A DNA stretch of 23,721 nt from Escherichia coli (GCF_003334815.1 NZ_QOWO01000049.1), one strand, 5' to 3'. Counted from the first letter of the stretch, positions 50-1,519 are shown. The notes: a model not told the origin generated them from the letters alone. Numbers and translations are program-made.

Positions 50-778
50 TTATTTTCCGTTTTCTGAGACGACCCCTTCAAGAACAGGTTTAGCTTCTTC
101 AAACTTGAGATTAACTTTATTAGCGGAAGAGACAATACGCGTCTGGTATTTATGCTGATTACCTGTCTGCGTACTGGTCTGAACCTTATATCCGGATGTT
201 CCTTGTTTCAGTGCAGCTACATTATCGGTCTGGACAGTGGCATTCGTTTTTTCAGAAATCTGAATGTCCGTGACCATGGTGTAGTTAATATCTTCAACCA
301 TCGCATCAGCGGCCATTCCCACGAGACCGGCAGCAAGTCCCACACCTAATGTCGCCCCTGCAGAGTTGGAGTTATAGGCCGTAATACCTGCCCCTAACGC
401 CGCCCCCATTGCAGCACCCTGATAGCCCTGGCTCAGGAATCCCTGAGCCGTACGCAGATCCATTTTATCGGCTTTGAGGACATTGGCCTGTATCCAGTAA
501 TATGCGCTTTCCGGCGCGGATGTCACAGTATACCCTTTATCCTGAAGCGCCTTCGTTACTTTCGCCTGCAGACCGGACATGTCTTTGTCGGAGGTATTCT
601 TTATCTGAAGATATACGGTTTTCTGCGAGGACGGTTCAAGCCAGATGGTTTCACTCATCTGGGTTTTCACTTCAAGATTACGTTTCTTGATTGCTGTGCT
701 CATCGCGCCACAACCAGATAACACCAGAGTGGAAGACAATATGGCGGTCATTGCCATTAACTTAATGTTTTGTTTCAT
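50..778 (-). CDS. traT: TraT surface exclusion outer-membrane lipoprotein
   Basis: 242 aa with lipoprotein signal ([30 protein letters not shown]) closely matching remembered F TraT; ATG at 776-778, TAA at 50-52. Confidence 0.95.
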
Positions 779-955
779 ATTTTATCATTTCCGTATAAGT
801 AGCATGATATCTTTCATGCTCAGAAGTGCTGCTATCATTCCTCCCTTCCCAGAGGGAGGTAATGGCTATCTTATAACCAGAAATATACCCGCATCAATAT
901 CACGGCCAGAGTTGGTTGTTTTTTATACTCACATAGTGGAAAACCGATAAATAAC

Positions 956-1519
956 TTATTTCGGGGATGCTGAAATAAGCTCTTTCATTTTCGACAGACT
1001 ACTGACTACTGCTGGGGTCATATACCGAGAAAGAGATGTTTGTAGCGTCAGCATGCTAATTATATACGTTACAAACCAAGAAAAACCCAAACCACCAATC
1101 AAGCTTTCATCCTTCAAAATTAAAATAAATCCAACAATAGTATTTACTGACATGAGGAATAAGCTGTAAAAACCAATCTTTTTCTCAATCAGCTTAAAAA
1201 AAACAGATTGATTTATGATTTCGTCACCTAATGCAAGCCGCATACAAACAGAATCATAAGTCGACATTAAAAATACAACACTAAAAAAAGCATTAGATCC
1301 CAACGCCAGAACAATAGTATCAAAATAATGATACTCACCAGACTTGGAATTAAAAAAAACATCAACAATAATAAAACTTACCTGAAGAGCGTAAACAATT
1401 ACCAGCTTACTAAAAATGACCTTCAGAATATTTCGATTTGATGGAATCTCATAATCGACCTCTTTAAACGCATCCAGAATAAATGCAACATCTTTTTCCA
1501 GTTCTGAACGTTTCATCAT
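956..1519 (-). CDS. traS: Entry exclusion inner-membrane protein (TraS-like), assigned by position and hydrophobicity
   Basis: Sits between traG and traT as in F; very hydrophobic, AT-rich ORF; preferred start is ATG at 1517-1519 behind GGAGGG, 9 nt after the traG stop (the ORF track's TTG at 1531 is rejected). TraS sequences are poorly conserved, so the call is positional. Confidence 0.6.

Follow-up and report, generated by a model that had tools for sequence, protein, structure and literature searches.

The traS Gene of an Escherichia coli Plasmid Is Very Probably a pED208-Like Allele, Carried in an Exchanged traG-traS Cassette and Distinct in Exclusion Group from F and R100

Introduction

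In F-like plasmids, the textbook arrangement is a conserved traT next to a traS that is AT-rich and divergent, and the question raised by the locus described here is what such an ORF says about the exclusion group of the plasmid that carries it. The locus lies in a 23,721-nt stretch of Escherichia coli DNA (NZ_QOWO01000049.1, assembly GCF_003334815.1), referred to below as the window. The original prediction was of an F-like plasmid in which a protein without recognizable similarity to F TraS sets an entry-exclusion specificity other than that of F, while the surface exclusion due to TraT remains F-like. By analogy with F, R100, and pED208, TraS is proposed to be a small inner-membrane protein that acts in the plasmid-carrying cell, where it would block DNA entry from a donor with the cognate TraG. 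It is on the same analogy that an exclusion activity, and its specificity, may be ascribed to the TraS of the window.

Results

The ORF between traG and traT Is a Genuine Gene

The left end of the window holds distal genes of an F-type (MPF_F) transfer operon, read from the minus strand in the order traH (4415-5776), traG (1528-4413), traS (956-1516), and traT (50-778). The traS ORF encodes a protein of 186 aa and was recognized as a pED208-type entry-exclusion gene from the ORF list, the alignment with pED208 TraS, and an identical protein that already bears the name. Alternative starts at an ATG (1519) or a TTG (1531) would give products of 187 and 191 aa, respectively. Direct reading of the sequence revealed a Shine-Dalgarno motif, GGAGGG, on the minus strand at 1520-1525, two bases past the traG stop codon (1528-1530), with the traS start located 8-11 nt downstream of the latter.

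The description of an AT-rich, hydrophobic ORF beside a conserved traT was borne out by the composition of the region. The GC content of traS is 0.33 (GC3 0.30), as compared with 0.53 (traG), 0.47 (traT), and 0.51 (entire window), and the GC profile delimited an AT-rich tract from approximately 941 to 1660 that takes in traS together with the final ~40 traG codons. The GRAVY value is +0.63 for TraS, which has three to four hydrophobic segments, -0.35 for TraG, and -0.21 for TraT. Low GC content as the mark of a foreign allele was considered and rejected, the traS genes of F (0.35), R100 (0.37), and pED208 (0.34) being equally AT-rich in the comparison of four traS genes.

Scans of TraS against Pfam and NCBIfam gave no significant model match, and sequence searches of the PDB with TraS and TraG found no relatives. 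Since no curated Pfam/NCBIfam model exists for TraS, its family membership rests on direct alignment. The failure to match a Pfam or NCBIfam model might point to a positional look-alike or a decaying gene deprived of the exclusion function, a reading that we regard as very improbable. The ORF is intact and its length is kept across 120 clusters of homologues (all of about 186-197 aa), the dN/dS values of traS (0.05-0.4) indicate purifying selection, the predicted fold is confident and TraS-like, and the Shine-Dalgarno motif sits immediately past the traG stop. The traG-traS-traT-traD order is kept in 23 related loci. Homologue clusters, synteny, dN/dS, and the AlphaFold model establish that the ORF at the traS position is a real gene.

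The AlphaFold2 model of TraS, built from a 27-sequence alignment, reached a mean pLDDT of 84.5 and a pTM of 0.74, with helices at residues 3-19, 27-56, 64-103, 105-134, 138-162, and 168-183. Combined with the charge distribution, from which the topology was deduced, the model predicts a cytoplasmic N-terminal helix, four membrane helices, and a cytoplasmic C-terminal helix; the periplasmic loops would be very short (about residues 57-63 and 135-137). The best 36 matches of the model in AFDB50 (Foldseek, TM-scores 0.65-0.96) were TraS or unannotated, mostly enterobacterial, proteins, and those below them were noise. The genera represented were Escherichia, Salmonella, Yersinia, Serratia, Aeromonas, Edwardsiella, Arsenophonus, and Legionella.

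The Transfer Region Resembles That of pED208

A tblastn search of PLSDB retrieved pED208 (NZ_AF411480), whose annotated 'protein TraS' aligns with the window TraS over 187 aa (68.4% identity, E 6e-79), and global alignment gave 68.8% identity from end to end. Alignment to a known TraS type had been named in the original prediction as an outcome that would speak against it, and with respect to pED208 TraS this outcome was in part observed. In multiple alignments, the identity between the window and pED208 amounted to 84% for TraG, 69% for TraS, and 90% for TraT. Over its full length, the window TraG (961 aa) is 37% identical to F TraG and 36-37% identical to R100 TraG. The mature part of the pilin encoded by traA (precursor at 19242-19676, minus strand) is ~90% identical to the pED208 pilin (PDB 5LEG, 9MZT) and much more distant from the F pilin (5LER). 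Judged by these sequence comparisons, the transfer region is pED208-like throughout. The idea, implied by the original prediction, that traS alone is exceptional on an otherwise F-like plasmid had to be given up, as the operon as a whole, with a TraG at 37% to F and 84% to pED208, belongs with the latter. The pED208-like branch corresponds to the IncFV-related group C of MOBF12 (Fernandez-Lopez et al., PMC5102898).

The TraS of pED208 (F0lac, IncFV; WP_032490372) shares with the window TraS its length of 186 aa, the position between traG and traT, the low GC content of its gene (0.34 vs. 0.33), and near-identical N- and C-terminal segments. It differs in 31% of the residues, concentrated at aa 35-140, i.e., in the membrane helices and short loops. 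Finlay and Paranchych reportedly sequenced pED208 traS in 1986 and showed it to confer exclusion. The very likely difference in exclusion group from F and R100 is inherited from this lineage, known since 1986, and is not new.

NCBI and UniRef already list the exact 186-aa protein (P0002) under the name 'protein traS', and the identical TraS is indexed in 548 blocks of an assembly collection. It is uncommon in finished sequences, being found in 6 of the 72,556 PLSDB plasmids and 2 of the 5,426 complete E. coli genomes. The ORF is a catalogued allele of an already known TraS family, not a new one.

F-Type and pED208-Type TraS Are Probably Remote Homologues

The initial impression that the protein has no similarity to F TraS holds for pairwise comparisons only. 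A single BLASTP comparison of the two gave 25% identity over 159 aa with an E of 0.04, and global alignment with F TraS (WP_000632670, 173 aa) gave 19%. Profiles, intermediate sequences, and the predicted fold link both families. Comparison of the pED208-type and F-type alignments with hhalign yielded a probability of 74.6% and an E of 2.7e-5 over 146 columns, collinear from the N- to the C-terminus. A profile of 27 pED208-type members, searched against 1.84 billion representatives, retrieved 72 of them, all of 176-198 aa where full length. F TraS (1e-12 to 1e-15) matched the intermediates P0224, P0230, P0234, and P0207, and so did the pED208-type profile and the window's own TraS. Two motifs are common to both types: the hydrophilic N-terminal helix terminates in D-x-x-IPS, and S/G-R-Y occurs at the C-terminus.

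F TraS resembles the window TraS in operon position, similar size, low GC content of the gene (0.35), and predicted architecture; it differs in that the 19% identity lies beyond the reach of an ordinary pairwise search and the cognate TraG proteins are just 37% identical. Altogether, the profile, the intermediates, and the fold suggest that F-type and pED208-type TraS are probably remote homologues, a link that is probable and not proven because membrane-protein composition inflates such scores. In the relevant passage of a 2020 review (PMC7555446), pED208 TraS is stated, after Audette et al. 2007, to have no homology to F TraS; the probable link described here would correct that statement.

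The situation of R100 TraS (WP_000605870) is different. Its gene, like that of the window, is small and AT-rich (GC 0.37) and lies between traG and traT, but the hydrophobic segments of the protein are placed differently and BLASTP detected no relationship to the window TraS (E 31). A phmmer search matched R100 TraS to none of the representatives, hence providing no bridge to the pED208-type proteins.

As TraS and TraG both diverge strongly from their F and R100 counterparts, the comparisons argue that the entry-exclusion group of this plasmid very likely differs from the groups of both. The predicted difference in exclusion group from F is accordingly retained as very likely, on the divergence of TraS and TraG; its cause is the pED208 lineage of the plasmid and not, as had been supposed, an unusual traS.

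TraS Classes among pED208-Like Plasmids

TraS classes were typed among 16 plasmids. The TraS of the window represents type A, one of at least six classes found among the pED208-like plasmids. Type B, the class with pED208 TraS, was typed on LS992176 and Bareilly and is 69-73% identical to type A; the identity of four to five further classes to type A is 29-55%. In the family, the first ~30 and the last ~45 aa are conserved, with the C-terminal segment beginning GLGFSWFVT, and aa 35-140 are hypervariable with indels. The dN/dS of the C-terminal segment, 0.05-0.11 at a dS of 0.5-1.0, indicates that its conservation is due to selection or constraint and not to recent exchange. The corresponding values were 0.2-0.4 for the variable middle of TraS, 0.06 for the core of TraG, and 0.03 for TraT. 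For the traG tail, two 41-codon comparisons gave a dN/dS of 0.5-1.15 and the remaining ones 0.05-0.34, dS being saturated in many cases. These per-segment values for traS, the traG tail, TraT, and the TraG core did not clearly indicate positive selection.

The plasmid may then belong to the same family and also to the exclusion group of pED208, if the 31% residue differences are functionally neutral. We consider this possible while leaning against it. TraS proteins of 69% identity could still have the same specificity, the two cytoplasmic segments, at the N- and C-terminus, hardly differ from their counterparts in pED208 TraS, and the variable middle, at a dN/dS of 0.2-0.4, has no overall excess of replacement changes. 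The exclusion determinants of the SXT/R391 Eex proteins are said to be cytoplasmic and C-terminal, as reportedly found by Marrero and Waldor in 2007. Their C-terminal location is echoed in a passage of PMC7555446. Against a shared group stands the finding that TraS types coexist on backbones otherwise 96-100% identical, as if type switching were advantageous. The TraG tail linked to traS differs as well, being 66-68% identical to those of the type B plasmids LS992176 and Bareilly, the closest intact relatives. The tail of pED208 itself is out of frame in NZ_AF411480, hence it offers no direct comparison with that of the window. Moreover, a few TraG residues can suffice, as in the IncJ element R391, for which the passage concerned in PMC7555446 gives Thr606-Asp608 of TraG as the mapped determinant of exclusion specificity. 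In exclusion group, the plasmid is probably distinct, too, from several of its pED208-like siblings in E. coli.

The Eex/TraG systems of the SXT/R391 ICEs and of the IncA/IncC plasmids are alike in two respects: a small inner-membrane protein of the recipient corresponds to a short stretch of variable sequence in the donor TraG, and a few discrete exclusion groups occur on similar backbones (PMC7555446; see also PMC5389848 and PMC11493245). They are unlike in that Eex is presumably unrelated to TraS and in that the determinant lies at TraG 606-608, not in the C-terminal tail.

The traG Tail and traS Form an Exchanged Cassette

Sliding identity showed the window to be 100% identical to NZ_CP035820 (pWS3294A_133) from 5800 to ~2470 and 99-100% identical to AP027407 (pEC507_1) from ~2390 to 80. 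Mismatch positions and sliding identity placed the crossover in the interval 2390-2468, with NZ_CP035820-like sequence to its right and AP027407-like sequence to its left; the two parental types diverge strongly only below 1963, and the TraS of NZ_CP035820 is just 43-46% identical to that of the window. The traH-traG-traS-traT stretch (80-5300) is a recombinant of two known plasmid types, with an upstream part like NZ_CP035820 and a downstream part like AP027407. GCA_037062125.1 has this mosaic too, but its traT is intact (6 mismatches in 5.2 kb).

The possibility that this recombination had left the window with a mismatched TraG/TraS pair was examined and rejected, as the TraG 601-700 segment differs little between the window and the natural type A plasmids AP027407 and CP099216.

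When ten contexts of the identical traS allele were compared, the identity was 100% only over ~800-1600. The 177-nt spacer between traS and traT (779-955, minus strand) was 100% identical in all ten of them. Other backbones change sequence type at about TraG residue 920, inside a conserved stretch. This pattern of switches indicates that the unit of exchange consists of the traG tail, traS, and the following spacer, with conserved sequence on either side. A cassette of ~0.7 kb, AT-rich and made up of the last ~40 traG codons and traS, recombines among near-identical backbones; it would be exchanged by homologous recombination between these otherwise near-identical partners.

Within the spacer, a T-rich run comes after a weak hairpin that resembles a terminator (889-905, minus strand). 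A promoter scan found sites no more numerous than in shuffled sequences, and the simple scan picked up no sigma-70-like promoter for traT.

traT Is Truncated by a Transposon

The surface-exclusion lipoprotein gene traT (50-778, minus strand) encodes 242 aa, with codons 1-234 native and the last eight codons and the stop derived from the inverted repeat (IR) of a transposon. The protein is, as predicted, close to F TraT over most of its length (81% identity over aa 6-234), has the lipobox LSGC, and matches the solved F TraT structures at ~81% identity (PDB 9FS5, 9E2V, 9FSM). The conserved TraT ending DQLAKSVANIL (11 residues) is replaced by GVVSENGK (8 residues) after codon 234. The score against NCBIfam NF010291 (PF05818 was also named) was 443.9 bits at a cut-off of 445, a shortfall that fits the replaced C-terminus.

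The terminal 76 bp of a Tn3-family transposon (Tn21 subgroup, TnAs3-like) occupy positions 1-76, with a 38-bp IR at 39-76 next to the end of tnpA. In megablast, window positions 1-84 were found at 98.8% identity in plasmids numbering in the thousands, under the label 'Tn3-like element TnAs3 family transposase', and all matches of the tra region begin at base 76. The sequence of the inverted repeat is GGGGTCGTCTCAGAAAACGGAAAATAAAGCACGCTAAG, which we take to be the Tn21 IR. The traT gene is not intact, the transposon having been inserted in its 3' end; the remainder of the element lies outside the window.

A TraT pentapeptide was once proposed as the site of surface-exclusion specificity. At this position (about residues 136-140), the window TraT has NSAGA, as in F and R100; the sequence is SSAGA in pED208 and in its relatives from Salmonella and Citrobacter. 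The role of the pentapeptide in setting TraT specificity has been questioned in a 2025 preprint (10.1101/2025.05.27.656304). The TraT proteins of F and pKpQIL are 85% identical yet plasmid-specific, F TraT failing to exclude pKpQIL (PMC11733297). The expectation of F-like surface exclusion is therefore not upheld: the 81% identity is insufficient for it in the light of the F and pKpQIL pair, and traT is truncated.

TraS Type Follows the TraG Tail

The donor partner of TraS, the mating-pair stabilization protein TraG, is encoded by 961 codons at 1528-4413 on the minus strand (NCBIfam NF010295, 1183.9 bits). Two of its variable parts were compared with TraS. Codons 921-961 (1531-1653), delimited from segment identities, encode a variable charged C-terminal tail and lie inside the AT-rich tract. 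Codons ~601-700 (2313-2613) correspond to the specificity region of F and R100; in the passages of PMC7555446 and PMC9797247 that report Audette et al. 2007, the TraS specificity of these two plasmids is mapped to TraG 610-673. A complex of TraG and TraS is described there (PMC7555446) as experimentally undetected even in F, which makes the mechanism of recognition a model.

Over all pairs of the 16 plasmids, the Spearman correlation with TraS identity was 0.84 for TraG 921-end and 0.10 for TraG 601-700. The 601-700 segment is identical in a type A and a type D plasmid (L022 and CP088376), and likewise in Bareilly (type B) and CP058919 (type F); one allele is common to the window, CP035820, and CP025918, which carry three TraS types. 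The segment is variable and unlinked to TraS type, and the co-variation of 601-700 with TraS type that the F/R100 paradigm envisages was not found in the 16 plasmids. The TraS type tracks the TraG tail only, not the equivalent of the F/R100 specificity segment. In this respect the window family is unlike F and R100, whose specificity maps to TraG 610-673.

One explanation is that the last ~40 aa of TraG and the variable TraS core constitute a portable module which, instead of the internal TraG segment, sets the specificity. We put this forward tentatively and think it somewhat unlikely, because adjacency alone gives linkage and because the TraG tails of F and R100 are near-identical although their TraS proteins are unrelated. 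The same two facts suit a different explanation, namely that the tail is linked to traS by physical hitch-hiking and specificity resides in TraG ~600-700, so that all E. coli pED208-like plasmids with the same segment would exclude each other regardless of TraS type. A gap of 8-11 nt separates the tail from traS, and the tail is too divergent for internal recombination, so co-inheritance is expected without any function; in this family as well, no internal part of TraG varies more than 601-700. Hitch-hiking appears to us unlikely, as it would require one TraG segment to be recognized by TraS proteins that share only 30-45% identity. Different TraS types go with one and the same 601-700 allele, in the A/D and B/F pairs and in the trio of the window, CP035820, and CP025918, and the correlation of this segment with TraS identity is as low as 0.10.

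Several further features of traG were observed in the related loci. TraG 601-700 exists as a few discrete alleles, shuffled independently of traS type (loci L006, L008, L010, L013, and L022). In the deposited pED208 TraG (1599-4433 of its locus, 944 aa), the last ~45 codons are out of frame relative to all relatives, which is either a sequencing error of the 2001 record or a real frameshift. The traG gene is interrupted by an in-frame stop near codon 503 in p120899_76 (NZ_CP025918; 1591-4473) and by a frameshift in p899037_2 (CP091406; about 3100-5990).

Discussion

Taken together, the results make it highly probable that the ORF at 956-1516 is a pED208-like traS whose allele sits in an exchanged cassette and whose exclusion group is other than those of F and R100. 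The behavior of the cassette, the uncoupling of TraG 601-700, and the homology of F and pED208 TraS are modest additions to what was known of these plasmids, not surprises. The uncoupling of TraS type from the F/R100 segment bears on where TraS reads TraG.

The exclusion type decides which related plasmids share a cell and, consequently, which resistance and virulence plasmids meet and recombine. The presence of different traG-tail/traS cassettes on near-identical backbones suggests that exclusion groups in this lineage are finer than replicon or MOB typing reveals. Should the tail and the TraS core indeed act as a portable module, at least six such modules would be recombining among near-identical backbones of E. 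coli, Salmonella, and Citrobacter, and a plasmid could switch its exclusion group in one step, which would open cells occupied by sibling plasmids to superinfection.
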